The notes under the pieces: generated by a model
Seen by the model: only the letters and a program-made list of their open reading frames with translations
What the model was told of the DNA's origin: nothing
The model's database searches: none
Shown here: piece after piece, positions 9,674 to 31,871 of the stretch
Layout of the letters: every line of letters starts with the position of its first letter
Numbering within the stretch: position 1 is the first letter of the stretch
Program-made: the position numbers and the translations under genes
NCBI GenBank assembly: GCA_964593055.1
Contig: CAZQIG010000006.1
Span: 28,668 to 92,667 of the forward strand
Length of the DNA: 64,000 nucleotides
Origin: an uncultured Erysipelotrichia bacterium
GTDB taxonomy: Bacteria > Bacillota_I > Bacilli_A > JBKEDG01
Direction: 5' to 3'

Positions 9674-9757
9674 GCGGGTGTGGCGGAATTGGTAGACGCA
9701 CTAGACTTAGGATCTAGCGCCTTTGGCGTGGGGGTTCGACTCCCTTCACCCGTACCA
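9674..9757 (+). tRNA. tRNA-Leu (anticodon UAG)
   Basis: A cloverleaf can be drawn. The acceptor is GCGGGTG/CACCCGT. The anticodon stem CTAGA/TCTAG carries the loop CTTAGGA, which puts TAG at the anticodon position. A long variable arm CGCC-TTT-GGCG is present, the T-loop is TTCGACT and the 3' CCA is encoded. Confidence 0.85.
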
Positions 9758-9998
9758 TTTATTTTTGAACTAGCCCCAATAATTGGAGAAAAGTTCAAAC
9801 ATAATTAAATTATAATCAGGTAAGTTGTAAACAACTCAATCCTGTCAACGGAGGCTTCACCGCCCTCGTCAGTTGGGACGCCAGAGCCGAAGACTGGCCG
9901 ACCCAAGGTCAAAGTGGATTTTTTAATAAAGGTGATAGACACGAGAATGTTATTCTCGTGTCTTTTTGCGTTCATTAATAATTTAGGAGGGTGAATAA
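9758..9998 (+). promoter_or_regulatory. Left end of the inserted element: a 241-bp leader repeated identically at 38666..38906
   Basis: It starts with a short inverted repeat (TTTTGAAC...GTTCAAA) and a TATAAT box near 9819. An unusually GC-rich segment of about 90 nt follows (9833..9920, roughly 60% GC) and ends in a T-run. A perfect intrinsic terminator lies 30 nt before the RBS of the next gene. Confidence 0.45.
9938..9968 (+). terminator. Attenuator-type intrinsic terminator inside the leader, upstream of the possible replication-initiator gene
   Basis: GACACGAGAAT-gtt-ATTCTCGTGTC is an 11-bp perfect stem followed by TTTTTG. Confidence 0.6.
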
Positions 9999-10877
9999 AT
10001 GAATTATAGAGCCAAAGATAAAAATAATATCTTCATCGAATTTAAACATATGCTAGATTATGAATTATCTGAAGATATTATTAAAGCAAGAATTTTTCAT
10101 AGCAATTTAGGTAATCAAAAATCAACAATCGATGCTAAGTTAAGAAAATATCAATTGATTGATAAATTAAATAGACGACAAGCTGTTAATAATCGAAGTG
10201 CTTATGTCTTTGATGTAATGTTACCGAGAAACTATTTGATAAATAAAAACATTGGTAAGTTAAAAAACTATATTACTGAACTTGTAAATGATTTTAAAAA
10301 TGATCATAACTTAAAATACTACGCTTACTTTATTAAAATAGGTAAAGCACGAATTTTAAGAATTGTTATTTTAAATAGAATAATCGATTTTTCTACTTTA
10401 AAGTTTTATGAAAAAGATGGAAAATTAATCTATGATAAACAGATTGTCTATATTAGTAATAAAATAAGGATTCCACATTTTGCAACTAGAACAAAGGGTT
10501 CAAAAGAAATTTTTCAAGCAACAATTGAAGAATATAAACTATTACTCATTCGCATATTAACGATAAAAGTCATTCAAGTAAATGACTTTATCAAAAAGGT
10601 GAGCTATAAGACATGCGTAAAAACCTATGAAGGATACACACATCTTTTAATTACACATAATTACTATAATCACCTCAAAAAACGGAAAATTAAGGCAATT
10701 AATACTTATATTGGTGCTATTAATGAACACTTGATATTGAACCAGGAACATTCTAAAACAATTATTAGAAATGCAAAAAATAAGATTAAATTCTATAAGG
10801 GGTTTAAAGTGAAAGACTTATTAAAGTTAGAAGCAGAAATAATTATTGAAATTGCTATTATCAAGCAAAAAAATTAA
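9999..10877 (+). CDS. Duplicated 292-aa protein, the first gene of the element; a replication-initiator or regulator role is only a hypothesis
   Basis: It lies directly downstream of the attenuator leader and ahead of parA-parB, the position a plasmid-type rep gene would occupy. A near-identical N-terminal two-thirds copy sits at 38907. I recognise no catalytic motif. Confidence 0.3.
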   Translation: MNYRAKDKNNIFIEFKHMLDYELSEDIIKARIFHSNLGNQKSTIDAKLRKYQLIDKLNRRQAVNNRSAYVFDVMLPRNYLINKNIGKLKNYITELVNDFKNDHNLKYYAYFIKIGKARILRIVILNRIIDFSTLKFYEKDGKLIYDKQIVYISNKIRIPHFATRTKGSKEIFQATIEEYKLLLIRILTIKVIQVNDFIKKVSYKTCVKTYEGYTHLLITHNYYNHLKKRKIKAINTYIGAINEHLILNQEHSKTIIRNAKNKIKFYKGFKVKDLLKLEAEIIIEIAIIKQKN

Positions 10878-10977
10878 AAATTTAATATATGCAAAGAACT
10901 TTGCGTATTTATAGGATTAGTAGGAGCACATTTATGTGTGACAACCTTTCCGCCCATCAAAATAGAAAGTAGGTGAA

Positions 10978-11499
10978 ATGATGAAAACAAAGTACAACTT
11001 TTCTAAATTAGAAGATTTAAAAAGAAGAAATCGAAAGATTTTTAAAATTAAGAGTCATTTAAGAAATAAAATAGTTATTGAATTAGTTGATCCTAGTCAA
11101 TATTTAAAGAAAAAAGGGTATCGAGTAATTCATTTAAACAGTTTTTATAGATTTTTAAACTATTTAGAAGTCCATAAAGATGAACAACTTTTTAAATCTT
11201 TAGGTATTGATAAAACTATTGTTGACTTCTATATTATTTTCAATGGCTTTCCTTTAGAAAATGGCTTTACAGATAAACAACTTCAAGAATTAAAGAAAGT
11301 TAGTGATGAAAAACTTTATACAGTAGATGATTTATGGTTAGAAATTAGAATTAGAGAGAATAACAAATATTTAGCTCCTGAAAAAATTTACATTAAAGTG
11401 TGGGAACAAATTAATCTAGCTTATTATAACTATTTATTGAGCTTAGATTATCAAGATACAGCAATTGGAAAGAATTTGAAGAGGAGGATCTTAAGGTGA
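10978..11499 (+). CDS. Hypothetical protein, paralogue of 39912..40421
   Basis: A 173-aa ORF with shared blocks YRFLNYLEV and LWLEIRIRENN...IYIKVWEQIN. Confidence 0.45.
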   Translation: MMKTKYNFSKLEDLKRRNRKIFKIKSHLRNKIVIELVDPSQYLKKKGYRVIHLNSFYRFLNYLEVHKDEQLFKSLGIDKTIVDFYIIFNGFPLENGFTDKQLQELKKVSDEKLYTVDDLWLEIRIRENNKYLAPEKIYIKVWEQINLAYYNYLLSLDYQDTAIGKNLKRRILR

Positions 11500-11969
11500 A
11501 AGAAGAGTCTAAGCCAAAAACTAAAAGAGAAAAGATGAACCGTAGTTGTCGAAATGTTGAGTATTTAAGAAAAATAATTTCTCAAAAAGAAGTCCGTGAA
11601 TTGACTTCAATTAATGAATTTTGTGAAAAAAATAATCTTAATAAAGAAACTGCACATAGATTTGCAACATATATTGATCCTAAGATAAGAACAAAGGGAT
11701 TTGATTATGGAATTGACTTAGATATTTTAAAATTTTATTTGTATTACATAGGTCACACTAAAAAAGTAGAAAGTACTAAAAGAGCAAGGGAACTCAGAAA
11801 ACTTTCAACTAAAAATACTTATAGTGATAATTTATTATGGATCGAAATTAAAACAATGGATCAAAACAAATCAATTTATTTAGCTAAATCACATCATAAA
11901 ATTACTAAATACATTAATGTTGGATACTATAGATATTTAGTAGAAAGAAAAATAATTAATAAAAAATAG
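11496..11969 (+). CDS. Hypothetical basic protein
   Basis: A 157-aa ORF. A truncated 47-codon relic sits at 40450..40593 (RSCRNVEYLRKIISQKEV versus RSCNIEYVMKRISEKKV). Confidence 0.4.
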   Translation: MKEESKPKTKREKMNRSCRNVEYLRKIISQKEVRELTSINEFCEKNNLNKETAHRFATYIDPKIRTKGFDYGIDLDILKFYLYYIGHTKKVESTKRARELRKLSTKNTYSDNLLWIEIKTMDQNKSIYLAKSHHKITKYINVGYYRYLVERKIINKK

Positions 11970-11984
11970 AGGGAGGATTTAATT

Positions 11985-12755
11985 ATGAAAGTTATAGCTA
12001 TTTACAATTTTAAAGGTGGAGTTGGAAAAACTACCACTACAAAGTTTCTAGCAAAGTATTTTGCTGAAAAGAGAGGAAAAAGAGTTTTACTTGTTGATAT
12101 GGATCCACAAGCAAATTTATCGAGTCAATTTATAATATCAAATGAAACTAATCGGACAACATATCATTTGTTATTAGAAGATAGTGCAAGTTTAAAGAAT
12201 TGTATTTCTAAAACTACGGATAAAAACATAGATATTATCATAAGTGATTTCAACTTATTAAAAGCTAATAATGAATTATTGCAAGAAGCCATTACAAAAC
12301 CACCTGCTGGAAGGTTAGCAAAGAAAATGGTATCAAATGATACCAAAGATTATGATTATATTTTAATTGATTGTCCACCAACAATGGATTTACTTGTGAC
12401 TAATTCTTTAGTGATAACCGATGAAATTATTATTCCAGTTAAAGCTGATAGATATTCAGTAGATGGACTAGAAATGATGTTAGAAAAAATTAATGAGATT
12501 AAAAACTCTTATAATGAAAATTTAAAAATCTCATCTATATTTCTAAATCAATACAAACACACAAACTTACATAAAGAACTATTCACATTACTAAATGAAC
12601 AGTTAGAATATATGAATGCAAATTATATTGGTGATTATTCAATTGTTTCTAGAGACACGGTATCAGATGATACCAAAATTGAAAAACATAAAATAACTGA
12701 ACAGTATGATAAATTATTTTCCTCGATTATGGATGAGATAAATGAATTTAACTAA
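11985..12755 (+). CDS. parA: ParA/Soj-family partition ATPase
   Basis: The deviant Walker A KGGVGKTT is at the N-terminus and D(M)DPQ is present. It is followed by a ParB-like gene. Confidence 0.8.
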   Translation: MKVIAIYNFKGGVGKTTTTKFLAKYFAEKRGKRVLLVDMDPQANLSSQFIISNETNRTTYHLLLEDSASLKNCISKTTDKNIDIIISDFNLLKANNELLQEAITKPPAGRLAKKMVSNDTKDYDYILIDCPPTMDLLVTNSLVITDEIIIPVKADRYSVDGLEMMLEKINEIKNSYNENLKISSIFLNQYKHTNLHKELFTLLNEQLEYMNANYIGDYSIVSRDTVSDDTKIEKHKITEQYDKLFSSIMDEINEFN

Positions 12756-13470
12756 TTTAGAAAATTTGAATAAGAAAATTACCATGAGTAATGAAAAAAC
12801 CATTGGTCGAATAGCAGAAGTAGAAATTAATAAGTTGATTAAGAATCCTATTAATTTTTATGATGAATATTATGATCTGGATAACTTAGTAGCTTCCATT
12901 AAAGAATTTGGGTTAATAGAACCTATTCAAATAACCGCTAACTATCTTGTTATTAGTGGACATAGGAGACTAGAAGCTTGTAAGAGAGCAAAGTTAAATC
13001 AAATTAAGGTTATTTTTGTTGAAAGTGAAGATAAAGAAAAATTAGCTATCAAACTAATTGAAGCTAATCGTCATCGTGAAAAGACATCTGAGGAAAGACA
13101 AAAAGAAATTGCAATTTTAGAAAAATACTATCAAAATTTACAAGCTAAAGGTCTTAAACCTAAAGGTCGAATCAGAACTTTAATTGCCAAAGACTTAGGT
13201 ATATCAGAAGCTACAGTTTCGAGGAACTTAAAAAAGGTATCAAATGATACCAATAACAAAGATAATGGATTAAAGAATTTTAGAAAGTTAGATAAGATAT
13301 TAAGATTATGCAAGAAAGATTTAACAGAAGAGAAAGTAATATCTACACAATCACTCGAAGTGATAATTGATACGTTATTTGAAAATTTAGATCTCAAGCT
13401 TTTAGAACAACTTAATGAAGAACAAAACAATCACAAACAGTTTACGATTGACGATTGTATTACTGAATAA
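12742..13470 (+). CDS. ParB/Srx-domain protein (partition or nuclease-like)
   Basis: A ParB N-terminal domain (IEPIQITANYLVISGHRRLEACKRA), then an HTH region (LIAKDLGISEATVSRNL). Confidence 0.6.
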   Translation: MNLTNLENLNKKITMSNEKTIGRIAEVEINKLIKNPINFYDEYYDLDNLVASIKEFGLIEPIQITANYLVISGHRRLEACKRAKLNQIKVIFVESEDKEKLAIKLIEANRHREKTSEERQKEIAILEKYYQNLQAKGLKPKGRIRTLIAKDLGISEATVSRNLKKVSNDTNNKDNGLKNFRKLDKILRLCKKDLTEEKVISTQSLEVIIDTLFENLDLKLLEQLNEEQNNHKQFTIDDCITE

Positions 13471-13498
13471 TAATAAAATTTCTGTATTCATTGTTGGT

Positions 13499-13546
13499 TG
13501 TATAGCATTGATTACTTTCCCCCTCTATTGTAGTCAATGCTATACA
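13499..13546. repeat. Perfect 13-bp inverted repeat with a 22-bp spacer immediately downstream of parB
   Basis: TGTATAGCATTGA at 13499..13511 pairs with TCAATGCTATACA at 13534..13546. Confidence 0.5.
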
Positions 13547-13598
13547 GCTAATAATGAGTAATGGTTAAAAACTTTAATAGAATGGCGATTAATAAGTA

Positions 13599-14543
13599 TT
13601 ATTTTTGAATATACCATCTATATATTTTTATGCTGAATGTCAAAATGAATGCAAATACAAATAATTGAATAATTGTATCATTCCATAAAATTAAGAAATG
13701 ATAATCAAAAAGTAGCAGTGGTTCATTTTCTAGTTCTATTGCAATAGATATTGCTTTGATTGATATGCTTATTGATGCAAATAAAGCCACAGTGTAGTGG
13801 AATTGTCGAACAAAATCAGTTCTAGTATAAATAAATATGTCACTTTTTCTCTTGTAAAATATTTTTGAGGTCACATTTGACATGTAAGTTTCACCAGGCT
13901 TATATGATTTTGTAAAAACAATTTTTGTTACAACAAATAAGTAGAATACTAAAAAAAATAATGAGCTGAATAAGATTGCATTAAATACATATTTTTCTGC
14001 ATTGTTCAAAATGATAGTTCGGCTTGTTTCTACTACAACGTTTAATTGAGTGAATAATATAAAAGGCAAGAAATAGCCTAGGGATATCAGTACTCCAATT
14101 ATCAAATAATATTCAATATTGAGATTCGTAATATTATTATGTTTGTAGTCTAAATATAGTACTGTTGTAAAGATGGAGATAATAAAAATAAAAACAAATG
14201 CTAAGCCATGCATAGGAGTAACTATTAGTGATGAGAAAATTGAAAAATTAATTTTTAATATTACAAAGCAAATGATTTGAATAATCAATATCCTTATTAT
14301 TTGAAATTTTTCTATTTTTGAATTATAACAAAACCAATATATAAAACTACTTATAGAAGTTGTGAAAGCAATGGAAATTAAGATCATAAAAAAAATTTTT
14401 GGTAAAATAAATTTTTCTGGAATAAAGAAACAAATTATGCATATCATGATGGTAAAGCTGAATCCAACGTGAATTTGAGTTTTGTCACATGAGTGAACAC
14501 TGCTTAGTATTGATTTTTTAGTAATTTCAACTAATTTTCTCAT
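13599..14543 (-). CDS. Polytopic membrane protein, function unknown (the only gene on the - strand inside the element)
   Basis: 314 aa with eight or more hydrophobic helices. Confidence 0.4.
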   Translation of the reverse strand: MRKLVEITKKSILSSVHSCDKTQIHVGFSFTIMICIICFFIPEKFILPKIFFMILISIAFTTSISSFIYWFCYNSKIEKFQIIRILIIQIICFVILKINFSIFSSLIVTPMHGLAFVFIFIISIFTTVLYLDYKHNNITNLNIEYYLIIGVLISLGYFLPFILFTQLNVVVETSRTIILNNAEKYVFNAILFSSLFFLVFYLFVVTKIVFTKSYKPGETYMSNVTSKIFYKRKSDIFIYTRTDFVRQFHYTVALFASISISIKAISIAIELENEPLLLFDYHFLILWNDTIIQLFVFAFILTFSIKIYRWYIQK

Positions 14544-14819
14544 ATAATACCTCCTAAAATCAATTCACTTAAATTATAACAAAATTAAAAAACGATATAA
14601 AGCAACATTATCACTCAATAATTATAAAACTATCAAATAGTTTTTATAATATAAATAAAAACTGAATAAATAAATTTTATATTTGTATGTGGATATGAAA
14701 TTGTAGAAATAGGTTACGTGTTCCTTTGTAAAAAGCACTTGACACATATGTATGATTATTTATTATTAAGATATGAAAAATATGTTATAATAAAACTAAT
14801 TAGTGATACAATTTGAGAG

Positions 14820-15695
14820 GTGATACTTATGAATATTATTAGAAAAATATTATTGATATTAATATCAATATGTTCAATAATAAGTATTTCTACACTTATT
14901 TATATTAGTGCATTTCAAAAGGTAAAAATAGGATTTGTGGCAGTAGAACAAACTGTTCAAATTCGTGATTATAAAAATTATAATACTTATGCTGATTTTA
15001 TTGAAGAATTAGATTTTGATGAGTTGATGTTAGCATACAGTATTGAAGAAGATAGTTATGATTACATTAACTTAGCAATTTCTTTTGATCGAGAAGTAAA
15101 TTTTTATAATCATAATCATCCTGAATACTCGATAGATGAGTTCTTAGAAAAGTTTGGCGATCAAAAAATTCAAGATGGAGCATTAGTTCATTTTGTTTAC
15201 TATAAAGAAATAGAAAGTGAACAAGTGGAAATTATAAAATATGAAAGTTTTGAAGAAAAAGATGAGACACTTGATAGCGGTAGTACAGAAATCAAAGTTG
15301 AAGGTATTGATGGTAAAACTATTACACCTAAGATAGAAGTTTATCGTAATGGAAAATTAATAGATACTATTATAGGAGAAACAGAAAGAATTGAACCAGT
15401 TAATGAAATTGTTTTGGTGGGAACTAAATTGTCAAGAAACTATAGTAGTTCATCAACTTCAAGTAATAGTAGCTCAAGTCACTCAACTACTAATAATTCT
15501 TCAAATGACTCTAATAATACTTCTCCATCCAATGAAGCTACGAAACCTGTTGAAAAAACTTGGTACTTACGTGTGACACCTTTTGGAGGAACTCAATATG
15601 TTGATTCTACGTATACTAGTGAAAGCTCATGCATATCTGCTGGTAAAGCATGGGGAAATAGCAATTCCGGTTCGTGGGGTTGCAAAGATTGGTAA
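14820..15695 (+). CDS. Secreted or membrane-anchored protein with a G5-like domain and a Ser/Asn-rich linker
   Basis: The N-terminus has a TM/signal segment. A G5-type block follows (IKVEGIDGKTITPKIEVYRNGKLIDTIIGETERIEPVNEIVLVGTK), then an S/N/T low-complexity linker, then a Cys-containing C-terminal module. Confidence 0.45.
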   Translation: MILMNIIRKILLILISICSIISISTLIYISAFQKVKIGFVAVEQTVQIRDYKNYNTYADFIEELDFDELMLAYSIEEDSYDYINLAISFDREVNFYNHNHPEYSIDEFLEKFGDQKIQDGALVHFVYYKEIESEQVEIIKYESFEEKDETLDSGSTEIKVEGIDGKTITPKIEVYRNGKLIDTIIGETERIEPVNEIVLVGTKLSRNYSSSSTSSNSSSSHSTTNNSSNDSNNTSPSNEATKPVEKTWYLRVTPFGGTQYVDSTYTSESSCISAGKAWGNSNSGSWGCKDW

Positions 15696-15700
15696 TAGTT

Positions 15701-15728
15701 AAACGGTATCAGTTGATACCGTTTTTAT
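15701..15728 (+). terminator. Intrinsic terminator
   Basis: AAACGGTATCAgttgaTACCGTTTTTAT. Confidence 0.5.
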
Positions 15729-15751
15729 ATTGAATATAAAAGGAGTAAAAT

Positions 15752-17683
15752 ATGAAAAAACAAGTTAAATACTTAGGAATTATTGTAATGCTTTTTGGAT
15801 TATTAAATCTAGAAAGTATTTTTTATGTAAAAAAAATTGAGGCACAAAACTTTGATACATATAAGATACCTAATTATAGTCAAGAAATAATTGATTTAGA
15901 AAAAGAAGAAGAAGATGTATATTACGCCAATGGTGAATTAAATGCATCTCCTGGGGAAATTCATTCTACAGAAGTTGAGTTACAAAACTTTGTAGATAAA
16001 TATGCTGATACTGATAATAATGGCACAGTAATTATTAAAAATGCAACTAGAGCAGGTAATACTTTAACAGTTGTATTTGAAGGTGATTACGTAGGGACAG
16101 GAAATGTTTCAAATTTTGGATTGGTTTATAAATTTAATCAATATACTAGCGGTAGGACAGCATACGCTAGATATTATATTGATGGTGTCTACTCACTATG
16201 TATTGAACCAGGAAGAAGTGTTAGTCCTGGAACATCATATAATGTTAGTGCAGTAAATGGAGATTTAGTAGTAGATTGGAGTGCAGGATACTTTGCTAGT
16301 TATCATTCTAAAACATCGGTATTAACTGCTAATGAATCTAAAAGATTGTCGAGAATGGTCTATTATGCAAGTACTAAAGTAGATTTATCTAAAAGTAGTG
16401 ATTTTGAAAAAGCATTACGTTTAATAGCTACACAGTATACAACTGATATAGATGTTACTTTTACATACAATAACAGTGAATATAGCAATATTGAAGATGA
16501 AGTGTCTATTTTACATAAGTATGCTGATGAATTTGAAATTGCACCTGTAATTGGTAATATGCCTAATGAGTTTTTAGTAGGAGAAACAATAAATTTAAAT
16601 ATTAACAATGCTAGTCAATGGACTCATATTAAAAGTACCGATAGTAACTTGAAGCTAGAAAGAACTAGTGATGGTATAAAAATAACACCTTTAAATAAAA
16701 GTGCTAATCTTTCACAAATAAAATTTACCAAAGGAAATGAAATTTCATCAAAATATAAGTTGTTTAGTAATAGTAATTCTCAAGATATGATTGCTTATAC
16801 TGAGTCAGATCCATTTAATTATTTTATGGATATAAATGTTAGGGAGGCTAGTGGAAGTCTAGAAGTTTATAAGACTGATACTATAGGTAATAAATTAGAA
16901 GGAGTTGAATTTCAAATACTAGATGGATTTTATAATGATGTAAGTAATTTAGTAACAAATGAAGAAGGATATGCAAGATTAGATAAGCTTCCACTAGGAA
17001 TTTATTATTTAGGTGAAATAAAGACATTAGATAATTTGATACTAAATAAAAATTTATTTCCTTTTGAGATAGATGAGGATGGTGCAAAGATTGTTATTAA
17101 TGTCTCGAATACAGAATATGCTAATTTAACAATATTTAAAACTGATGCAAAAACAAAGGAAAAGCTAGAAGGAGCCAAATTAAAACTAAAGTATTTTGAA
17201 GATGAAACAGGTAATTATGAATCATATTACCATGGACTAAGTAATGAATATTTGAGTGCCAATGCGATAGCATACGTTTTAACAGGTGAGTATGATGATA
17301 ATAGTTATCACATCATTGAAGATGAAACAGGAGTATTTCTTGTTGAAGATTCTACTGGAAACAAAGAACACATTGACAAGTCATATTTTGATAAAAAATA
17401 TGATAATGAATATATAACAACAGTTGATGGAATAAACCTCAACATACCTATTGGCTTATATCAAGTTTGTGAGATTAAAGCTCCAAATGGTTATTTATTG
17501 AGAAATGATTGTCTGGAATTTGAAGTTTTGGAAGGAGAAAATGAAATCAAGATTGAATTTGATAACTACGAGATAGAAACATTAGTTAAAACAGGTAGTA
17601 GAAATGAATTATGTATTTATTTTCTTGTAATAATAGTTTTCTTATTAATGAAGGCGGTAAATCGTTTTTACAAGACATGCTAA
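15752..17683 (+). CDS. Surface adhesin-like protein with two CnaB-type domains and a C-terminal sorting-signal-like tail
   Basis: The N-terminus is a signal peptide. Two CnaB-fold blocks are present (LEVYKTDTIGNKLEGVEFQILDG...LPLGIYYLGEIKTLDN and LTIFKTDAKTKEKLEGAKLKLK...YQVCEIKAPNGYLL). The C-terminus reads LVKTGS, then a hydrophobic stretch, then a basic tail (KAVNRFYK). Confidence 0.55.
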   Translation: MKKQVKYLGIIVMLFGLLNLESIFYVKKIEAQNFDTYKIPNYSQEIIDLEKEEEDVYYANGELNASPGEIHSTEVELQNFVDKYADTDNNGTVIIKNATRAGNTLTVVFEGDYVGTGNVSNFGLVYKFNQYTSGRTAYARYYIDGVYSLCIEPGRSVSPGTSYNVSAVNGDLVVDWSAGYFASYHSKTSVLTANESKRLSRMVYYASTKVDLSKSSDFEKALRLIATQYTTDIDVTFTYNNSEYSNIEDEVSILHKYADEFEIAPVIGNMPNEFLVGETINLNINNASQWTHIKSTDSNLKLERTSDGIKITPLNKSANLSQIKFTKGNEISSKYKLFSNSNSQDMIAYTESDPFNYFMDINVREASGSLEVYKTDTIGNKLEGVEFQILDGFYNDVSNLVTNEEGYARLDKLPLGIYYLGEIKTLDNLILNKNLFPFEIDEDGAKIVINVSNTEYANLTIFKTDAKTKEKLEGAKLKLKYFEDETGNYESYYHGLSNEYLSANAIAYVLTGEYDDNSYHIIEDETGVFLVEDSTGNKEHIDKSYFDKKYDNEYITTVDGINLNIPIGLYQVCEIKAPNGYLLRNDCLEFEVLEGENEIKIEFDNYEIETLVKTGSRNELCIYFLVIIVFLLMKAVNRFYKTC

Positions 17684-17731
17684 TAATATTAGAACTGTAA
17701 TAATATTATATTAAACTATGGAGGGAGATTA

Positions 17732-18814
17732 ATGTTTTATTTCATTATTTTTGTTATAATATTAATAGATATTAATATTAATAATGGAGAGGGTTTAATG
17801 AAAGCAATTGAGTGGTTAAAAAATCTTAGCATATTAAAGAGAATATCATTAGCAATAATTACCGTAGTTGGACTTATCGCTGGACTTCTTGTTAATACAT
17901 ACGGTGAAAGGGTAGTCAACTATTTTGACAATCTATGTGAAATAGAAGTAATAGCTATAGATGATCTCGTTGATGTTTACAGTTATGGTTATACAGATGC
18001 ATATTTTAAAACTGAAGAAGATAGTGTAGTTTTTATTCAAGAGACTAAAATTCCAACACCGTATATTAAAATTGAAAGTAGCAAAAATAAATGTGTTGCA
18101 GATGCCTTAGTAACTTCCTACACAAAAAATTATGAACTTGATGTACATGTTAAAGATAACGAATTTAATAAACTTGGATTTCCTTATAGTGAGAATAAAG
18201 GTGTTGGATTTACTGAGAGAAATTTAGTCACTTACTCAGATAATGATGAAAGAATGGTTATAGAAAGCGTAGTAAATGAGATGGATAGAGGTGGAACTGC
18301 TGCTTTGAATCTATATGAAGAAGAAAATATCGCCAATAGTAAAGAATGGTGTAAAGAGAAAGAATGTTATGTGGGTATATATAATACAGCCTATGATTCT
18401 GAAATATATTATGAAAGTCCTATTACTACTTTTGCTTATAATGTTCTTGAAATTCAGTTAAATAATAGAGATGATAAATATAGGAAGTATGTTGTCTTCC
18501 ATATTAACAATACTGAAACTAAGTATTCAAGAGTTTTTGTGGAAAATATTATGACTTATAATTCATCAACACTATTAAGTATAATTGAAGAAGTACAAGA
18601 AGACATTGACACGCATGAATTATGTGGAAATACAATTCAAAATGTACTTACAAATTCTTATTATAATTACTGTAACTTTTTTTATGATTCAGATATGAAA
18701 GAAGGGGTGTTATTAAGTAATTATTTGAATGAAAACCATAGTGGTGACTTTGAAATAAACTCAGAATATTATTCCGAATATAATAATACTTTATTGGAAA
18801 GGATAGAAGAATGA
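17732..18814 (+). CDS. Membrane-anchored extracytoplasmic protein (candidate T4SS accessory)
   Basis: An N-terminal TM helix is followed by a 300-aa soluble domain. I see no recognisable motif. Confidence 0.4.
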   Translation: MFYFIIFVIILIDININNGEGLMKAIEWLKNLSILKRISLAIITVVGLIAGLLVNTYGERVVNYFDNLCEIEVIAIDDLVDVYSYGYTDAYFKTEEDSVVFIQETKIPTPYIKIESSKNKCVADALVTSYTKNYELDVHVKDNEFNKLGFPYSENKGVGFTERNLVTYSDNDERMVIESVVNEMDRGGTAALNLYEEENIANSKEWCKEKECYVGIYNTAYDSEIYYESPITTFAYNVLEIQLNNRDDKYRKYVVFHINNTETKYSRVFVENIMTYNSSTLLSIIEEVQEDIDTHELCGNTIQNVLTNSYYNYCNFFYDSDMKEGVLLSNYLNENHSGDFEINSEYYSEYNNTLLERIEE

Positions 18815-18865
18815 GCTTTTATATAAGAGCTATTCAATTGACGGCTTAATAGAAGAGTAATTTAA

Positions 18866-18890
18866 GGAGAGCTAATTAGCTCTTTTTTAT
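18866..18890 (+). terminator. Intrinsic terminator
   Basis: AGAGCTAATTAGCTCT palindrome followed by TTTTTT. Confidence 0.5.
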
Positions 18891-18908
18891 TGTATTAAGG
18901 AGAAAAGA

Positions 18909-19109
18909 ATGAAAAATAAATTAAATAATTTAATTATGGAAGTACAAAATCAACTTGATACTACATATAAAAGAAATACACGAGAAATTCTTTTATGTCT
19001 AACAGAAACTGACAAATATTATATAGAGTTATGTAATCTTTATGGTTCTGATAATATAGATGATTGGTATGATAAGCTAGAAAGGGAAGTAGCACAGTAT
19101 GTTAGGTAG
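18909..19109 (+). CDS. Small hypothetical protein
   Basis: A 66-aa ORF with an RBS, translationally coupled to the next gene. Confidence 0.3.
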   Translation: MKNKLNNLIMEVQNQLDTTYKRNTREILLCLTETDKYYIELCNLYGSDNIDDWYDKLEREVAQYVR

Positions 19110-19956
19110 AAAAAACAGTTCAAGTGATGAAACATACATTATCGACGACTTTAAAGTTTTAAAAAACCAAAAGTTCTTACAAAGACTGATTAATGGATCA
19201 GTCTTTGTTTTTATCTTGTTTGGAGCAATATTTGGGTATACATCTTTAGTATCAGATGATAGCGAAAATGTAACCTATGAAGATGATAATGAATATATTA
19301 CAGAAAGAGTATTTATGGAAAACTTTTTAAATTATTACTTTTCTAGTGAGAAAACAGAAGAAATGATTAATTATTTAGATAATCACTCTGTGAATACTTT
19401 AAACAAATTTAATTGCCTAGAGAAATGTATAGTTCAAGAAGTGAAAATTGAAAGCATTGTTTCAGACAACAGAATAGAAGAGAATGAATTAATTTCTACA
19501 GGGTCATTAAAAATTAATGATATTTTTTATGAATTTGAAGTAATTAGTAAGGCAGATAAATTGATTATAAAAACAATTAGCTTATTTGAAATAGAGAAAA
19601 TTAATTATCTAGAAGAAGATTTAAGTAATGATATAAGTAGCCAATTTATCGATTTAGAACCAGTAACAAATGAAGAGTTATCACAAGCTTTAGAATTGCT
19701 TAAAATTTTCTTTAATACATATAATAGTGACTTTGAAAATTCAAAATATTTATATTCTGGAATATCTAAGCTTCATAATGGTGTTTATTATGATGTAGCA
19801 ACTTTAAATGTTGAAGAAAGTGGTAAAGATGCAAATGGTGTAAAGCTTTTAATTGCGATTGAAGAACATGTTGAGAACATTGGAAGTTTTAAAGTGAATA
19901 TGTTAATTGAGATTGATTTATCAAAAAATAAAATTATAAAGATTGAAATAAATTAA
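19099..19956 (+). CDS. Membrane-anchored hypothetical protein
   Basis: A single TM helix (residues about 35-55) followed by an acidic soluble domain. Confidence 0.4.
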   Translation: MLGRKNSSSDETYIIDDFKVLKNQKFLQRLINGSVFVFILFGAIFGYTSLVSDDSENVTYEDDNEYITERVFMENFLNYYFSSEKTEEMINYLDNHSVNTLNKFNCLEKCIVQEVKIESIVSDNRIEENELISTGSLKINDIFYEFEVISKADKLIIKTISLFEIEKINYLEEDLSNDISSQFIDLEPVTNEELSQALELLKIFFNTYNSDFENSKYLYSGISKLHNGVYYDVATLNVEESGKDANGVKLLIAIEEHVENIGSFKVNMLIEIDLSKNKIIKIEIN

Positions 19957-19966
19957 GGAGGAAAAG

Positions 19967-20290
19967 ATGATTAATTTATTAGTTTCAAGTGGCAAGATAA
20001 GTGCAATATTTGAAATACCTATTGTTGGTGTTTTAATAGATATTATATTGTATGTTGTTATTATTGTCGCTTTTTTTAAAACAATTAGTAAAATACCTTC
20101 AGAATATAAAAGCAAAGGACTTAAGGGAATTATTAATGAAATACTACTATTACTGCTTTGTATTGTCTTAATTGCTTCATTATTAACAGGTTTTCTGATT
20201 GATGTTATTGATTTAATAGAATATATTGTAGTGTTGGTATGGGACAAAATAAAAGAAAGTATCAAATGGATAGTTGACTTAATCTTATGA
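19967..20290 (+). CDS. Small two- to three-TM membrane protein (VirB3/TcpE-like position ahead of VirB4)
   Basis: 107 aa and hydrophobic, immediately upstream of the VirB4-like ATPase. Confidence 0.35.
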   Translation: MINLLVSSGKISAIFEIPIVGVLIDIILYVVIIVAFFKTISKIPSEYKSKGLKGIINEILLLLLCIVLIASLLTGFLIDVIDLIEYIVVLVWDKIKESIKWIVDLIL

Positions 20291-20709
20291 AAGCTTATAA
20301 TTATTCAATTGTTTTTCAAACAGAAGAAAAATTTGTAATACCTTTCACAAATTTTAAGATAAAAAATAAATTTTATTTAGTTATTAGTGTTACTGTAAGT
20401 TTGTTAATCGTTACACTATTCCTATTAATATTTAAGAGAGTTTTTTATGGCAGAATACTGCTATTTTTATCAATTGCAATATTTATGATGATTAATGCAA
20501 GTTTTGTTTTTATAATTACTTCTGTTAATAGTGAAACGCAAAACTTAAAGATCCAGGAGTTCTATTATCAAAATATTAGAAAATATAAAAATGTAGTTGA
20601 TAGACGAGGTCAACAACATTTTTTAATTGTTAGGAAGTATCAACGTAACTTAGTTTATTTAGGAGGTGAGTATTATAAATTATTTGGGATCAAACGTGAA
20701 GATGATTGA
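20287..20709 (+). CDS. Small two-TM membrane protein
   Basis: A 140-aa ORF coupled to its neighbours. Confidence 0.35.
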   Translation: MKAYNYSIVFQTEEKFVIPFTNFKIKNKFYLVISVTVSLLIVTLFLLIFKRVFYGRILLFLSIAIFMMINASFVFIITSVNSETQNLKIQEFYYQNIRKYKNVVDRRGQQHFLIVRKYQRNLVYLGGEYYKLFGIKREDD

Positions 20710-22987
20710 TGAAAATGTTTTTTACAGTAATGAGACAGTAGGCTATGTTTATAAATGTGAGATGATCAATACACTTTATAGTAATCATAATATTAGTGAC
20801 AGCTTCAGTGAGTTATTTAAAAAGATAAACATGCCTGCTAATATTTATATTGTTCCTAAACGTTTAGACACTAAGAAAATTTGGAAGAATTATAAAAAGC
20901 AGATTAAAACAGTAGATGGGTATGGTAGATTACAAAAGAGATACTTGAAACAAACTCAGAAATTAGTCAATAAATATAAATATTATAACTACGATATTTA
21001 CATAGTGTTTCTGGAATATCATAAGAAGGGTGGATTGGAGAAAAAGGAACGATTACAAATTTTTCAAAATGAGTATCAATTATCTAGTAAACAAATAAGG
21101 TTGTTAAATTTAATTAATGAAGAAATGACGAAAAAGAGTCAGACTATTTTTGGAGAAAAATTTAGAAAATCTAGCTTAAAAGATACAAAGTTTTTATTTG
21201 AGTATCTATGTTTACCGACAGATGAAATAGTTCAAAATTTTGTTTCTAAACCTTCAGCTAATCACATAGAATATATTTATGAAAAAAATGGAGTGACCAA
21301 AAAGCTTTATACAAGAAGCTTTATTGTGAAGAGTTTTCCTGAGAAAACAGCAGGATTTAATATTTTTAAAGAAGCTAAAAACTTAGGAATTCCAGTAGAA
21401 GTGATTGTCAAAACAGAACCTAATTTAAATAATTTTAAAATGCAAAATAAGATTAAAAAGCAGAAAAATCTTTTACGTAAATATTTACAGAAATATAAAA
21501 GAGATAATGAAATAAGTGATGATGATTATGAACAGGCAAATTATATGGCCAATATTGCTAATAATGAGATGAAAGACATGGATAAGATGATTATCGACAC
21601 ACAGATGATTATTAGGTTAAAAGGTGATAATTTAGAAACTTTAGAAAAATATTCTGAGAAAATTGTCATGAAATTTCTTTCTGAAAAGATTCAGTTAGTT
21701 TCATTATTAGGACTACAGCAGATTTGTCAAAAACATATTTTACCACAACATAATTTAATAGCGAATAATATTCATAATTTAGATAACAATTATTTTGATT
21801 TCTTTAATTTATTGGGTGGACTTAAAATAGGTGATGATGATGGAATAATTACAAACTACGTATTTCAAAATAAAAAGCCTGTTTTAGGATATGAATTTAA
21901 TCCATTGAAAGGGGTTACTAATGCTACTACCGCTAACATGCTGTATAGTGGTGTTAGTGGTAGTGGGAAAAGTCAATTAGCTAATGGCGACATTTTTAGG
22001 TTGTTATTATTTGAACAAGCTAAAACATTATTAATTGATCCTAAAGGAGATCGCAAAGGCTTTTCTAAAAAGATTAAAGATGCAGAATCATTAATAAATG
22101 AAATTGTGATTGGTAGTGATTTGAAATATAAAGGGTGTTTAGATGTTTTTAAGTCGCGTGACAATGATTCTGAAGTTCTAACAAAGTTGATAGATATAAT
22201 TATTAGTTTAGTTAGAGCGAGTAATGAAATAGTTGTAAAAACAGAACATATTACAAATGCTTATCATGAATATATTTCTAAAGATAGTACAAAGAAATGT
22301 TTTTGTGACTTCTTAGAAGTTTATAAGAAGTATGATGAGGATATTTATTATAACTTGAAGGCTTTAGAGAATGTTCAACATGCTAATTTGTTTTTTGGTG
22401 AACAAGCTTCAAATGAGTTTGATTTTTCAAAGAAATTTACAATTATTATTTTAGAGAAAGTGAATTTAAGTATGACAGATTCATTTACTAATAAATTAAT
22501 TAAAGTTGTGATGGATAATGTTGATAGTATTACTTATCAATTTATGAGAAAAGATGGTATTGAAAAGAAAGTTGTTGCTTTTGAAGAATATGAATACTTT
22601 AAAAATCTTATGAATTCAGCAGAAAAAATGGTTAATAGTATGATTAGATTAGTTAGAGGTTTTGGTGGACTATTAAAATTAATTACTCAACAATTTAGTG
22701 ATGTGTCAATTGCTATTTTAGATCAGATGGGGCAGTTTTATATTGGCAGAATGAAAAGTGTGAGTGAACTAAAGCTAGTATGTGAGTATTTTGATTTAAA
22801 TTTTGAAAAGTTCAAATTTTTGATTAAGAAAGATGACCAAGTAGAAACAGAACAAGAAAAATATAGATTCCTGTACGTAGATTATAATAATCGAAAAAGC
22901 ATTGTTAGACAACAATTTTTAGATATGTTTCAAACAGCATTTACTACTCATTTGAAAAGAGATGATGTTTATGAAAAACGTGTTTAA
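20666..22987 (+). CDS. VirB4-family conjugative T4SS ATPase
   Basis: 773 aa. Walker A GVSGSGKS sits in the C-terminal half and DE-type Walker B regions follow. Size and domain order match VirB4/TrsE/ConE. The exact start codon is uncertain (GTG at 20666 or ATG at 20702). Confidence 0.55.
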   Translation: MSIINYLGSNVKMIDENVFYSNETVGYVYKCEMINTLYSNHNISDSFSELFKKINMPANIYIVPKRLDTKKIWKNYKKQIKTVDGYGRLQKRYLKQTQKLVNKYKYYNYDIYIVFLEYHKKGGLEKKERLQIFQNEYQLSSKQIRLLNLINEEMTKKSQTIFGEKFRKSSLKDTKFLFEYLCLPTDEIVQNFVSKPSANHIEYIYEKNGVTKKLYTRSFIVKSFPEKTAGFNIFKEAKNLGIPVEVIVKTEPNLNNFKMQNKIKKQKNLLRKYLQKYKRDNEISDDDYEQANYMANIANNEMKDMDKMIIDTQMIIRLKGDNLETLEKYSEKIVMKFLSEKIQLVSLLGLQQICQKHILPQHNLIANNIHNLDNNYFDFFNLLGGLKIGDDDGIITNYVFQNKKPVLGYEFNPLKGVTNATTANMLYSGVSGSGKSQLANGDIFRLLLFEQAKTLLIDPKGDRKGFSKKIKDAESLINEIVIGSDLKYKGCLDVFKSRDNDSEVLTKLIDIIISLVRASNEIVVKTEHITNAYHEYISKDSTKKCFCDFLEVYKKYDEDIYYNLKALENVQHANLFFGEQASNEFDFSKKFTIIILEKVNLSMTDSFTNKLIKVVMDNVDSITYQFMRKDGIEKKVVAFEEYEYFKNLMNSAEKMVNSMIRLVRGFGGLLKLITQQFSDVSIAILDQMGQFYIGRMKSVSELKLVCEYFDLNFEKFKFLIKKDDQVETEQEKYRFLYVDYNNRKSIVRQQFLDMFQTAFTTHLKRDDVYEKRV

Positions 22988-24743
22988 GACTTGCTGTGTT
23001 TTACTTTTAACTTTAAATTTATCTAGTTCTGTTTTAGCAGAAGAACAACAAGATGATTGTGAAAATTCGGAATGGGAATGTTATGAAGAATACGCTACAG
23101 AACTTGATGAAACAGAAGCAAACTTTTTCTCTAAATCATTCATATCCAATGATGAAGAAATAAGAGAGTTAGAATTGGAAGAATTTTATGTGAAATATTT
23201 TTTTGAAACAGCAACAGTACCTTATCAAGCAGTTGATACATTTGGGGTTGATGTTGTTGAAAATTCCATCTTAACTATTATTATTGCTGCTGCAACTTTA
23301 TTAGAATTTGTGGGCTTGATGTTTACACTACTGATTATGATAGTTACTAACTTAGTAGAAAATAATTTCTTTGTAAATATAGTTATTGAAGGTGTTAACA
23401 GTTTGTTGGACATCGTATTTGATTTTGATAATCCTACAGGTACTTTTGCAATAATAGTTATTTTTATCACATTAATTAGTATTATTAGAGAAATTTTTAA
23501 GATTATTAGTAATAGTTTGCACCACTTCAACAAAGACTTTTTTATTAAGTCATTTAGAAAGATGATTATTGCTATTTTTATAGTTATTGGTTACACTTCG
23601 ATTTTGCCAATTTACAATGATATTAGTAATTCATTAGAAGAATTTATCATGACAACCATTTTTCAAAGTGAAGAAGAAATTGAGAATGAAACTCCGTATG
23701 AAATTACAGCTAAAAGAGAAATTTTTAATGCAATGCAATTCTATCCGTATATGCAGAAAAATTTTTGTGTGGCGACAATTGATGAACTTGCTGAGAAAGA
23801 TCAAATGAATATTGAAGAAACTAACAATAGAGTTACAGGAGTATTAGTCTTGGATGCAGGTGCTATCGGAAGAGAAGTGGATGATTATAATAATGAATGT
23901 ATTACACAGTCAGTTGCAACTGGATTTTTAAGTTTAGCTTTCTCATTAATATTCTTTATTCATAAACTCCTTTTCTTTGTATTAATCTTTATTTTGAAAA
24001 TTATGCTATTAATCATTAATTTGTTAGCAGAATTAGTCATCGTATTTTTATTCATTCCACTAATTCTTTTAATTTATGATAACAGTAGTAAAATTAGTAC
24101 TGTAATTATTAAGAGAATAGAATGGGTTTTAGCCTTAATAGTTGTTGAGGTTATTTTTACATTTATCATTACAATTTTATCGAGTATTGTTTTCAAGCTA
24201 TTATCTATCAATATGTTTTTATTACTAACGTTTGATATTACACTAATATTAATTGGTGTTCTAATTTATTCTAATCGTGAAGTTATTGCAGAATTTGCTT
24301 CTAAAATGATTGCTAATAATGCACTTAAAGGAATTTTAACAGGCAATTATTCTGTAAAAGAAGGATATAGTGATGTTAAAAGTGCAACTCTAAAAATTCA
24401 AGAAAATATCTCTAAAGTGTTCTCGCAAAAAACAGAAATTATTGACGAGGATGAAAAAACAAATGATAATGAAAGTACTTCTAATATAGAAAGTTTTGAT
24501 GAGAATTTGATGGTGAAAACTGAACATAACCAAAGAGATAATCATGATAAGGAGGATATGAAAGCTGAGAATACAAATGATGATTTGAATATAGTACAAG
24601 AAGAAGTTGATGATGTAGAAGATAACATTAAAATTGAAAATGATAATTTTTCTGCAGAGAATAATTTGGATATAAATGAAGACTTAGTTTTGAATGATGA
24701 GGAAACACATACTGGTGATAGTGATGAGGATGATAATTTATGA
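22962..24743 (+). CDS. VirB6-like polytopic membrane protein with an acidic C-terminal tail
   Basis: A signal peptide, six or more TM helices, then a D/E-rich C-terminus, lying between VirB4 and the cell-wall hydrolase. Confidence 0.45.
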   Translation: MMFMKNVFKTCCVLLLTLNLSSSVLAEEQQDDCENSEWECYEEYATELDETEANFFSKSFISNDEEIRELELEEFYVKYFFETATVPYQAVDTFGVDVVENSILTIIIAAATLLEFVGLMFTLLIMIVTNLVENNFFVNIVIEGVNSLLDIVFDFDNPTGTFAIIVIFITLISIIREIFKIISNSLHHFNKDFFIKSFRKMIIAIFIVIGYTSILPIYNDISNSLEEFIMTTIFQSEEEIENETPYEITAKREIFNAMQFYPYMQKNFCVATIDELAEKDQMNIEETNNRVTGVLVLDAGAIGREVDDYNNECITQSVATGFLSLAFSLIFFIHKLLFFVLIFILKIMLLIINLLAELVIVFLFIPLILLIYDNSSKISTVIIKRIEWVLALIVVEVIFTFIITILSSIVFKLLSINMFLLLTFDITLILIGVLIYSNREVIAEFASKMIANNALKGILTGNYSVKEGYSDVKSATLKIQENISKVFSQKTEIIDEDEKTNDNESTSNIESFDENLMVKTEHNQRDNHDKEDMKAENTNDDLNIVQEEVDDVEDNIKIENDNFSAENNLDINEDLVLNDEETHTGDSDEDDNL

Positions 24744-25303
24744 AAAATACTACTAAATTAGCAATTTTAATTAAACTATCACCAATAATTATTATTATAT
24801 CAATATTTTTGTTTGTACTTATTACAATTTCTTCAACAGTTATAAACAATCTTTATACAACAAGTCATAAGACAAATTATGATTCATATATTACCGATAG
24901 TGAAATCAATTTACCATTAAAGCAACTAGTAGTTACTTCTTCATACGGACAAAGATGGGGTAGACTTCATAAGGGAACAGACTATGATTGTGTGAATATT
25001 GCAGATGATGGAGCAAGAGAAGATGATTTAATATATGTAATTTTGCCGGGAAAGGTTACATATGTTAGAGATAGTGTTCAATATGGAAACATTATTAAAA
25101 TTGATCATGGAGTAGTAAATGGTAAACATTTAGAATCAATCTATATTCATATGTATAAAAACTTTGTTAGTGTTAGTGATAAAGTTGAAAAAGGGGAAGC
25201 ATTAGGAGTATGTGGAACAACTGGACGTTCTACTGGAACACATTTACATCTAGAATTAAAAGTTGATGGTGAATATGTTGATCCCCACAAATTTTTTGAA
25301 TGA
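24740..25303 (+). CDS. M23 (LytM-type) peptidoglycan endopeptidase, membrane anchored
   Basis: An N-terminal TM helix, then the M23 motifs HKGTDY and TGRSTGTHLHLE. This is the usual position of the conjugation-associated cell-wall hydrolase. Confidence 0.65.
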   Translation: MKNTTKLAILIKLSPIIIIISIFLFVLITISSTVINNLYTTSHKTNYDSYITDSEINLPLKQLVVTSSYGQRWGRLHKGTDYDCVNIADDGAREDDLIYVILPGKVTYVRDSVQYGNIIKIDHGVVNGKHLESIYIHMYKNFVSVSDKVEKGEALGVCGTTGRSTGTHLHLELKVDGEYVDPHKFFE

Positions 25304-25323
25304 TATAAGTAGAGGTAGGTGAT

Positions 25324-26067: not shown

Positions 26068-26184
26068 ATTAAAAAGATAGATTAGAAATATTGTAAAAAA
26101 GTCAGCTTAATAATTTAAATGTATTTTACACTACCTATTATTATGATAAAATTGTATTATAAAGAACTTAAAGGGGAAATGATA

Positions 26185-27381: not shown

Positions 27382-27409
27382 ATACAAAAAACTTTTGAGG
27401 GGGTTTAAT

Positions 27410-27919: not shown

Positions 27920-27986
27920 AGATAGATCAAAGAAAACTGATACAAAGTATAATGATATAATAATATGGTTACAACTTATTGATTAT

Positions 27987-28529: not shown

Positions 28530-28583
28530 TTATCTAAGTCAAATACAAAAAAGTTTATATGGAATAGATAGAAAGGAGTTTTA

Positions 28584-31488: not shown

Positions 31489-31685
31489 AATATAGGGGTG
31501 TAATTCAAGTAATAATTCGTGTATCTTTTCAAAGAAATGTAAAAGTAACTGAATTACACCTCAAAGATTAATAATAAATACTACTATATAACATTTTAAA
31601 TATTAAGATAATATCAAAAAAAACTTATTCATTCATTTATAAAATAACAACCTTTGTCTTTATCTTCTAAATTATTGAATAAGCA

Positions 31686-31757: not shown

Positions 31758-31871
31758 GAGGAAGATTTTGATTAAGTTTGCTGAATTAGTAAGTATTGTT
31801 CTAAGATATAAAAATATGTTATTATAAATGTATACAATGCGCTTATAAAATTAATAGTAGGGGGAATTCTA

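Follow-up and report, generated by a model that had tools for sequence, protein, structure and literature searches.

Why does one and the same sequence begin directly behind the 3' ends of two different RNA genes? The question is raised by a stretch of 64,000 nucleotides (nt) from an uncultured Erysipelotrichia bacterium (assembly GCA_964593055.1, contig CAZQIG010000006.1; referred to here as the window), in which TTTATTTTTGAACTAGCCCC... stands directly 3' of both a tRNA-Leu gene and a small-RNA gene, copy A of a family of five. A first-pass annotation had read the two joints as one element end inserted twice. We consider it probable that the locus arose otherwise, by tandem accretion: a conjugative element that carries a serine integrase (E1) and its decayed relative (E2) would have come to lie side by side at tRNA-Leu. 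The attachment site of the element (attP) would lie between an antisense small-RNA gene and the leader that it targets, and homologous exchange would have homogenised the left ends of E1 and E2. Copy A, previously taken for a second and independent target, makes better sense as the right end of E1 (an attP arm), which adjoins the related E2.

The window was compared with three related assemblies, GCA_019826185.1 (contigs L001 and L088), GCA_019826165.1 (L003, L006 and L089) and GCA_019826105.1 (L091), and with two Logan runs (L007 and L090). All of them are at least 99.8% identical to the window, and the layout is unchanged in each.

One shared end at two joints

The features that define the two joints are as follows.

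9674..9757, plus strand: tRNA-Leu(TAG), predicted by ARAGORN and matched by the Rfam tRNA model (55.8 bits), CCA encoded; left (attB-side) boundary
9752..9757, plus strand: GTACCA core, common to the tRNA and small-RNA ends; left limit of the repeat in all assemblies examined
9752..10587, plus strand: repeat copy 1, 836 base pairs (bp), 100% identical to 38660-39495 and comprising the core, the leader and the first 196 codons of the gene rep1
38660..39495, plus strand: repeat copy 2, left end of E2

The tRNA-Leu 3' end at 9757 reads ...CCGTACCA (that is, ...CACCCGTACCA), and the 3' end of copy A at 38665 reads ...TGGTACCA (...GTGACTGGTACCA). The identity of what follows the two ends, as first reported, is borne out and is 100% and ungapped over 836 bp (9752-10587 = 38660-39495). 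An end motif is indeed shared, but it is GTACCA rather than the GGTACCA originally described, since the tRNA has C at 9751 where the small RNA has G; the common motif is thus six nucleotides long, not seven. Six further matches upstream of the identity block are expected by chance with a probability of ~2e-4, and the joint is a real observation, not a chance one. GTACCA is not enriched in the window (14 sites, 10.7 expected), and its plus-strand occurrences number five: the tRNA end, the interior of the recombinase gene SR1, and small-RNA copies A, B and C. Immediately left of the core, the tRNA and the small RNA match at 4 of 14 positions.

The left flank looks chromosomal, encoding LtaS and an M17 peptidase. 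Directly upstream of the tRNA (8045-9593) lie a Y-family polymerase gene (ImpB/UmuC-like) and a YolD-like gene; because such pairs often ride on mobile elements, this flank may not be purely chromosomal.

E1, an apparently intact conjugative element

The region between the two joints contains the following features.

9758..38665, plus strand: element E1, an apparently intact integrative conjugative element (ICE), 28,908 bp
9999..10877, plus strand: rep1, encoding a 292-amino-acid orphan, first gene of E1
11985: ParA
12742: ParB
15752: SpaA adhesin (SpaA-type surface protein)
20666: VirB4-like ATPase (AAA_10 match, 8e-18; weak match to the mycoplasma ICE VirB4 family)
24740: M23 peptidase
26119: AbiH
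27395: PIN
28584: coupling protein (DUF87 and TraG-D_C matches)
30622: candidate nicking relaxase (weak match to phrog_9381, 'replication initiation by nicking', 7e-4; no Pfam match)
34003..35163, plus strand: serine integrase SR1, 386 amino acids
35293: KAP NTPase, 1029 amino acids
right end of E1: small-RNA copy A

E1 holds the VirB4-like ATPase and coupling protein by which a Firmicutes-type ICE is recognised, together with an integrase of its own and flanking direct repeats at a chromosomal site (GTACCA at 9752 and 38660). The flanks can be assigned because plus-strand GTACCA is limited to the five sites given above; copy A must be the right boundary, as it carries the sole plus-strand GTACCA in E1 downstream of the one inside SR1. 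G5-domain proteins are also encoded in E1, and its cargo includes genes of defence type, namely AbiH with a PIN-like nuclease (26119-28529) and the 1029-residue KAP-family NTPase (35293-38382).

SR1 is the sole recombinase in E1 and is of the integrase type. It matches the phrog_95 integrase family over residues 2-345 (9e-53) and CcrB/CcrC-like models, has a resolvase-type N-terminal catalytic domain (PF00239, 3e-29), and among solved structures is closest to the catalytic domain of TP901-1 integrase (1e-13). No tyrosine recombinase was found among the scanned E1 open reading frames (ORFs); the pairing of a tyrosine integrase with a displaced copy of the tRNA 3' end that marks islands in tRNA genes (tDNA islands) is not seen here, the repeat being merely 6 bp. 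The 6-bp shared core fits a serine-recombinase element, since such elements have very short flanking repeats (PMC5704250). The initial interpretation, a site-specific element that could use its serine recombinase at 34003 or some other enzyme, is supported in part: the element abuts the tRNA-Leu 3' CCA and carries one recombinase, of the integrase type, whose role is putative.

E2, a decayed relative to the right of E1

Two further genes, with repeat copy 2, define E2.

38907..39785, plus strand: rep2, 92% identical to rep1, the first 196 residues identical and the C-terminus diverged
57023..58168, plus strand: SR2, a serine-recombinase pseudogene with 2 stops, 46% identical to SR1

To the right of copy A, rep2 is followed by an ORF ~47% identical to the second ORF of E1, so that the homology of E1 and E2 extends over rep (92%), the next ORF (~47%) and the recombinase (46%). 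As SR2 is a broken serine-recombinase gene related to SR1, E2 is read as a decayed relative of E1. The signature of tandem accretion, homologous end modules (rep, second ORF and recombinase) at one site with a joint between a right end and a left end (here copy A and the leader), is present. E2 begins at 38666. Its right end is probably small-RNA copy E, which lies ~2.2 kb beyond the window; E2 would then be ~27.6 kb long, near the length of E1. The right ends of E1 and E2 have the same order of recombinase, cargo and small RNA; a single E2 of ~27.6 kb is suggested because this order, in the stretch from copy D to copy E, mirrors the right end of E1.

The E2 region further contains several plus-strand operons, each with an ABC-transporter ATPase. 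The operon at 45781-51084, which follows a small-RNA module, encodes a DUF6365 protein, an ABC-2 transporter and a C92 amidase-like protein, and that at 51712-56465, likewise behind a small-RNA module, encodes a DUF2712 protein, an ABC ATPase and several small membrane proteins. Between 58606 and 63596, and on to L003:13367, lie genes for three radical-SAM enzymes (one with a SPASM domain), a methyltransferase and, downstream, an ABC transporter. This cluster behind the broken recombinase looks like a modified-peptide biosynthesis locus carried as cargo.

A family of five small-RNA copies

A covariance model built from the small RNAs places copies A, B and C and a degenerate copy D in the window, and copy E in the sibling contig L003.

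38531..38665, plus strand: copy A; promoter TTGCAA-17-TGnTATCAT, hairpin 1, linker (38592-38608), hairpin 2 and CCA, without a terminator of its own
45184..45345, plus strand: copy B; linker 45209-45225, own intrinsic terminator
51290..51455, plus strand: copy C; own intrinsic terminator
56636..56705, plus strand: copy D; hairpin 1 and linker (56664-56680) intact, hairpin 2 degenerate
L003:13677-13781, ~2.2 kb beyond the window: copy E; ends ...CGACTGGTACCA, followed by an unrelated terminator

The common plan is a strong promoter (TTGCAA-17-TGnTAnnAT), a 5' hairpin, a variable linker, a hairpin closed by UACCAGU/ACUGGUA, and CCA, with a terminator in B, C and E. The 5' hairpin of 16 bp is invariant in sequence save for one A/G stem position and the loop. 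Copy E carries the same ...ACTGGTACCA end beside a different flank, with a gene for a C39-like peptidase downstream.

In copies B and C, ACCA is followed by TAATTG and a terminator, just as the first-pass annotation had noted. In copy A, however, ACCA does not mark a clean break, because A and B are homologous again, in register, from +8 to +30 (18/22 matches, p ~0.003); the motif TGAAnTnGCCCCAAnAnTTGGA is present solely at these sites. No displaced 3' half of a copy-A terminator was found within the window. Since A continues in register with B, the initial 30 nt of the leader would form one ancestral stretch with copy A, and the tRNA joint would be the recombinant one.

The small RNA had also been suggested, as a speculation, to mimic a tRNA, and this idea finds no support. 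In Rfam searches (whole window at the gathering threshold; leader, copy A and copy B at E<=10), the tRNA alone was matched; copies A and B thus gave no tRNA-model match even at E<=10, and ARAGORN predicted one tRNA only. The AGTTCG taken for part of a T-arm is absent from copies C and E, and its register is off by 6 nt from that of a tRNA T-loop. What copies A, B, C and E do keep, with one G-U change, is the 7-8 bp stem UACCAGU/ACUGGUA followed by single-stranded CCA, and the likeness to a tRNA acceptor end stops at this terminal stem and CCA.

Two further features accompany the small RNAs. The invariant 5' hairpin of every copy contains a 10-codon ORF, ATGAATA(A/G)CACG......GTGTCTATTTATTAA, with the translation MN(N/S)T..VSIY* (38569-38601, 45189-45221, 51295-51327, 56639-56671 and L003:13682-13714). 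With its start ~7 nt past the -10 box it would be a leaderless ORF, and a ribosome-binding site is lacking; the conservation could reflect a peptide or RNA structure. In addition, a GTCGAAC-loop-GTTCGAC hairpin lies ~90-120 nt upstream of copies B, D and E (45048-45075, 56500-56527 and L003:13537-13560), and just its 3' half is found before copies A and C. Because this hairpin is conserved upstream of the small-RNA copies, the repeated module is larger than the RNA.

The leader of rep as a predicted allele-specific partner of the small RNA

A 241-bp leader had been described ahead of the first gene, and it is found at 9758-9998, with a 292-amino-acid ORF following the leader in each copy of the repeat. 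Its parts are as follows.

9758..9804, plus strand: junction hairpin, TTTATTTTTGAACT...AGTTCAAACATAA, its 5' part homologous to the 5' half of the B and C terminators; second copy 38666-38712
9817..9910, plus strand: G+C-rich structured part (~60% G+C, against 26% for the genome) without an Rfam match at E<=10
9914..9930, plus strand: segment GTGGATTTTTTAATAAA, perfect 17-nt complement of the A/B linker; second copy 38822-38838
9937..9968, plus strand (also given as 9937-9963): intrinsic terminator (attenuator), just upstream of the rep ribosome-binding site; second copy 38845-38876

In reverse complement, the leader can be aligned to the 5' half of the small RNA, with which it shares homology. 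Copies A and B have the linker TTTATTAAAAAATCCAC, which is complementary without mismatch, over 17 nt, to positions 9914-9930 of the leader allele present in the window (allele W, see below); 8 bp more extend into the 5' strand of the terminator. In sibling strains, the leader (allele V) has GACGTATTTTTAATAAA instead (L001:9916-9932), and the linker of copy D matches this variant as its perfect complement over 17 nt. Cross pairs of the W and V leaders with the opposite linkers reach 11 nt at most, and none of 500 shuffles reaches 17. Five substitutions and one indel co-vary between the small RNA and its leader target. Within the leader itself, sibling strains differ from the window at two base pairs of the 9900-9910 hairpin, and both changes are compensatory (9901/9902 with 9908/9909). 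No targets for the linkers of copies C and E were found in the window.

Antisense attenuation calls for extended complementarity beside a terminator that precedes the ribosome-binding site, and 17 + 8 bp of it are found here. The small RNA and the leader are accordingly placed together, on the strength of their complementarity, as a predicted antisense pair. The position of the complement, which overlaps the 5' strand of the terminator, leaves the sign and direction of regulation unclear. No consensus promoter for a countertranscript was found at the right position on the minus strand of the leader, and the RNA would be encoded in trans, or in cis upstream. The cis case concerns copy A: as it has no terminator, its transcript should run into the leader, and the predicted fold of this read-through transcript contains a long-range helix between linker and leader (z = -6.2). 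If the small RNA and the leader form such a pair, integration would split a riboregulatory unit whose parts circularisation or a tandem neighbour would rejoin. The allele-specific pairing of small RNA and leader is the most interesting part of this locus, above the supposed tRNA-like target.

The gene behind the leader had been called initiator-like. This label is unsupported, Rep having no match in Pfam, PHROGs or NCBIfam. Relatives of Rep number two among 5.8 billion proteins and eight among 1.84 billion representatives, none of them annotated. The contigs of four relatives (1.0-5 kb) offer at most ~120 bp upstream of the gene and no Pfam domain; in the two with ~120 nt of upstream sequence, a terminator before the start codon recurs. 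The AlphaFold model of Rep is poor (predicted local distance difference test score, pLDDT, 47).

The 836-bp identity as a probable product of homologous exchange

Beyond the 836 bp, rep1 and rep2 differ mainly at third codon positions, both being 292-codon ORFs whose proteins are 92% identical. Within the 836 bp, the sibling assemblies are informative. L001 is 99.85% identical to the window over 20.9 kb, and 29 of its 33 differences fall in 9867-10136, where they form two blocks, the alleles of which were named W and V.

Window: copy 1 W-W; copy 2 W-W
GCA_019826185.1: copy 1 V-V; copy 2 not seen
GCA_019826165.1: copy 1 W-V; copy 2 starts with V

The perfect identity over 836 bp is therefore peculiar to the window assembly, its siblings differing inside the repeat. 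Sibling contigs break exactly at 10587, where the identity ends, and inside copy 2 at 38949. Because the sibling assemblies carry mosaic alleles within it, the identity appears to be a product of recombination or gene conversion, that is, of recent homologous exchange between the two copies, or in part an assembly effect, and not the footprint of an insertion.

A model of tandem accretion

We propose that the attachment site of this element family lies between the small-RNA gene, which would form the right end (...ACUGGUACCA), and the rep leader, which would form the left end. A crossover between this site and the tRNA end at the 6-bp GTACCA, most likely catalysed by SR1, would place the leader and rep behind the tRNA at the left (attL) and the small RNA at the right. 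Because E1 sits next to E2, its right end (copy A) abuts the left end of E2, and an attP-like joint would thereby be recreated; this joint is what had been taken for the second insertion. Three observations argue that copy A is not a second target: the homology of A and B as far as 30 nt past ACCA, the sole GTACCA available as a right boundary of E1, and the regulatory pair that copy A would form with the leader.

Large serine integrases of the canonical kind are not known to recombine attP with attL, and the tandem therefore needs either homologous recombination or a non-canonical enzyme. For this reason, E1 probably entered beside E2, or has since moved or been exchanged, by homologous recombination in the shared leader and rep 5' region, which would also explain the 836-bp identity.

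This behaviour of canonical integrases is itself a point against the model, and several others join it. A dyad scan found no dyad symmetry centred on GGTACC, the sole notable palindrome being the junction hairpin, 24 nt downstream. SR1 is short (386 amino acids), its closest homologues are 26-31% identical, and it gave no Pfam match to the Recombinase (PF07508) or zinc-ribbon/coiled-coil (PF13408) domains at E<=0.01, unlike the homologues found, all of which have Recombinase and zinc-ribbon domains. The usual targets of serine recombinases are sites within genes, not tRNA ends (PMC5704250; PMC4383910). At position 9753, tRNA-Leu(TAG) has T72, which gives a G1.U72 wobble atop the acceptor stem; the tRNA-Leu(TAG) of Bacillus and C. 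difficile has C. This T72 may be derived from the element or may be native. If it came from the element, the crossover would lie to its left, in conflict with copy E as the matching right attachment site (attR); T72 may therefore be native to this AT-rich organism, or the history more complex. Copies B, C and D within E2 are unexplained by the model, and the mosaic alleles could in part be chimeras of short-read assembly.

Across the accessible assemblies and public collections, no empty attB, excised circle, second host or independent insertion was found, which likewise counts against the model. What the sequences show is the anatomy, the gene content, the complementarity and the mosaic alleles. 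Since empty site, excised circle and independent insertion were not found, we infer the mechanism from the anatomy alone, and this applies to the enzyme and its crossover point as well as to the order of events and the direction in which regulation acts.

A bolder form of the model can be imagined, although we regard it as unlikely. The attachment site would be built into the riboregulatory unit, a short non-canonical serine recombinase acting at the tRNA-Leu CCA, and the control of rep would report on the state of the element, be it integrated, circular or part of a tandem. Small RNAs A and B on the one hand and D on the other, matching leaders W and V, would act in trans as determinants of incompatibility or immunity, and the hairpin-GGTACCA ends would serve as secondary docking sites from which the downstream array was built.

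Alternative explanations

The locus might owe nothing to site-specific recombination. A plasmid-like E1 could have joined an E2 already in place, through Campbell-type homologous recombination between their leader and rep sequences, the joint between tRNA and leader having arisen once, by illegitimate recombination or deletion through GTACCA microhomology. Active homologous exchange is what the 836-bp identity and the W/V mosaics, which differ between assemblies, would represent; ParA, ParB and a regulated rep-like gene suggest a plasmid-like lifestyle, and the core is merely 6 bp. We nevertheless think this improbable, as E1 keeps an integrase-type serine recombinase and E2 a remnant of one, copy E repeats the end beside a different flank, as attR would, and the joint lies exactly at the tRNA CCA end, an attachment site of the classical kind (PMC4383910).

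The explanation given by the first-pass annotation, that one element end was inserted independently at tRNA-Leu and at a once-intact copy A by a recombinase recognising a stem like that of a tRNA acceptor followed by CCA, has a good deal of the anatomy on its side. Both joints begin directly after ACCA, copies A, B, C and E retain the 7-8 bp stem and CCA, and B, C and E resemble uninterrupted copies with terminators. Yet we hold it to be very doubtful. An interrupted copy A should not be in register with B for 30 nt beyond ACCA, its displaced terminator half is missing from the window, and E1 would be left without a right-end repeat except copy A itself. Nor does the sequence resemble a common target, with 4 of 14 positions matching left of the core, no similarity to tRNA models and an AGTTCG that is not conserved. 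Serine recombinases, moreover, work on duplex DNA and are not known to act on RNA-like folds.

Alternatively, the region from tRNA-Leu to copy E could be an array built up stepwise from four or five cassettes or elements, every one of them closed by a small-RNA module (A-E) and added in its turn at the tRNA end, so that the newest lies beside the tRNA. The sequences after the ACCA of A, B and C would be homologous left arms, and the flank of copy E would be the original tRNA terminator. Such an array would account for small-RNA modules standing between plus-strand operons that each have an ABC-transporter ATPase, for the +8 to +30 motif common to A and B, for decay that increases with distance from the tRNA and for the unrelated terminator flank of copy E. 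It is hard to credit all the same, given that the segments after B and C have neither rep nor recombinase, that B, C and E have intrinsic terminators, predicted to work, directly after ACCA like ordinary small-RNA genes, that the order of recombinase, cargo and small RNA towards copy E suggests a single E2 of ~27.6 kb, and that no presence or absence of cassettes is seen among the assemblies.

A rolling-circle element of the IS91, IS200/IS605 or Helitron-like kind, inserted 3' of a short target and bearing a subterminal hairpin, was considered and discarded, as Rep shows neither an HUH motif nor a match to any family and both elements conserve an integrase-type serine recombinase.

Occurrence in sequence collections

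The window organism belongs to a Bacillota lineage of ~26% G+C with nearly all genes on the same strand, and no close relative was found among 185,579 species representatives. Its near-identical relatives are confined to the three assemblies (>10,000 contigs) and two sequencing runs, which suggests a host-associated bacterium. Comparison with related assemblies for empty sites, as proposed at the outset, gave none, all sharing the layout of the window. A scan of metagenomes for a 21-nt segment of the leader returned 5 matches, every one an unrelated G+C-rich coding sequence. The exact pattern of the small-RNA 5' hairpin (TGAATARCACGN6GTGTCTATTTAT) had 0 matches each in species-representative genomes, JGI metagenomes and IMG/VR. 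A search of a plasmid collection with positions 9600-11000 matched the tRNA only. In a synteny search with the M17 peptidase, the nearest relatives were 37-43% identical and mostly from Bacillaceae, too distant for synteny.

Comparison with known systems

Seen as an insertion at tRNA-like ends, the locus becomes less remarkable, consisting mostly of tandem elements at a tRNA site with gene conversion. If tandem accretion by a serine integrase is correct, it would present a conjugative element that docks by means of a serine recombinase at the end of a tRNA gene without damaging it, a niche normally ascribed to tyrosine integrases. The attachment site would also part an antisense RNA from its target, and the element would thereby gain a simple physical means of switching between its integrated and its free state. 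The two specificity pairs of RNA and leader among near-identical strains amount to a natural compensatory-mutation experiment. The first gene, the leader RNA and the small-RNA family of the element are all unclassified, in an AT-rich Bacillota lineage to which public genome collections offer no close relative.

Tandem accretion of integrative elements is documented (PMC5704250). ICESt1 and ICESt3 of Streptococcus thermophilus with their cis-mobilisable elements (CIMEs), and the streptococcal composites of ICEs and integrative and mobilisable elements (IMEs), likewise consist of head-to-tail relatives at one site, one intact and one decayed, with a joint of right and left ends (PMC5704250). Those systems use tyrosine integrases and longer repeats, whereas here the recombinase is of a short serine type, the core is 6 bp and the left ends are homogenised over 836 bp. 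Islander-type islands in tRNA and transfer-messenger RNA (tmRNA) genes also sit at a tRNA 3' end and leave the tRNA intact. The tDNA islands have tyrosine integrases and a displaced tRNA fragment, typically of tens of bp (PMC4383910); here no tyrosine integrase was found and only GTACCA is repeated.

Among serine recombinases, TndX of Tn5397, TnpX of Tn4451, the Ccr enzymes of SCCmec and the TP901-1 integrase are the nearest parallels, in view of the catalytic domain closest to TP901-1, the CcrB/CcrC-like matches and the very short flanking identity. SR1 differs from them in its length of 386 amino acids and its lack of a Recombinase or zinc-ribbon match, and its putative target is a tRNA CCA end, not the interior of a protein gene.

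In plasmids, rep genes are controlled by countertranscript attenuation, as with RNAI/II of pT181, RNAIII of pIP501 and pAMbeta1. The structured leader, the terminator before the ribosome-binding site, the complementary small RNA and the allele-specific pairing, which resembles that of an incompatibility determinant, all recall these systems. Unlike the plasmid countertranscripts, the antisense RNA here comes from separate genes on the same strand, in five paralogous copies, and Rep is an orphan. In Tn916-type elements, genes are activated across the joint upon circularisation; a promoter at one end of the present element would similarly read into the genes of the other end once the two are joined. 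Unlike in Tn916-type elements, the piece rejoined here would be not only a promoter but also the RNA partner of the leader.

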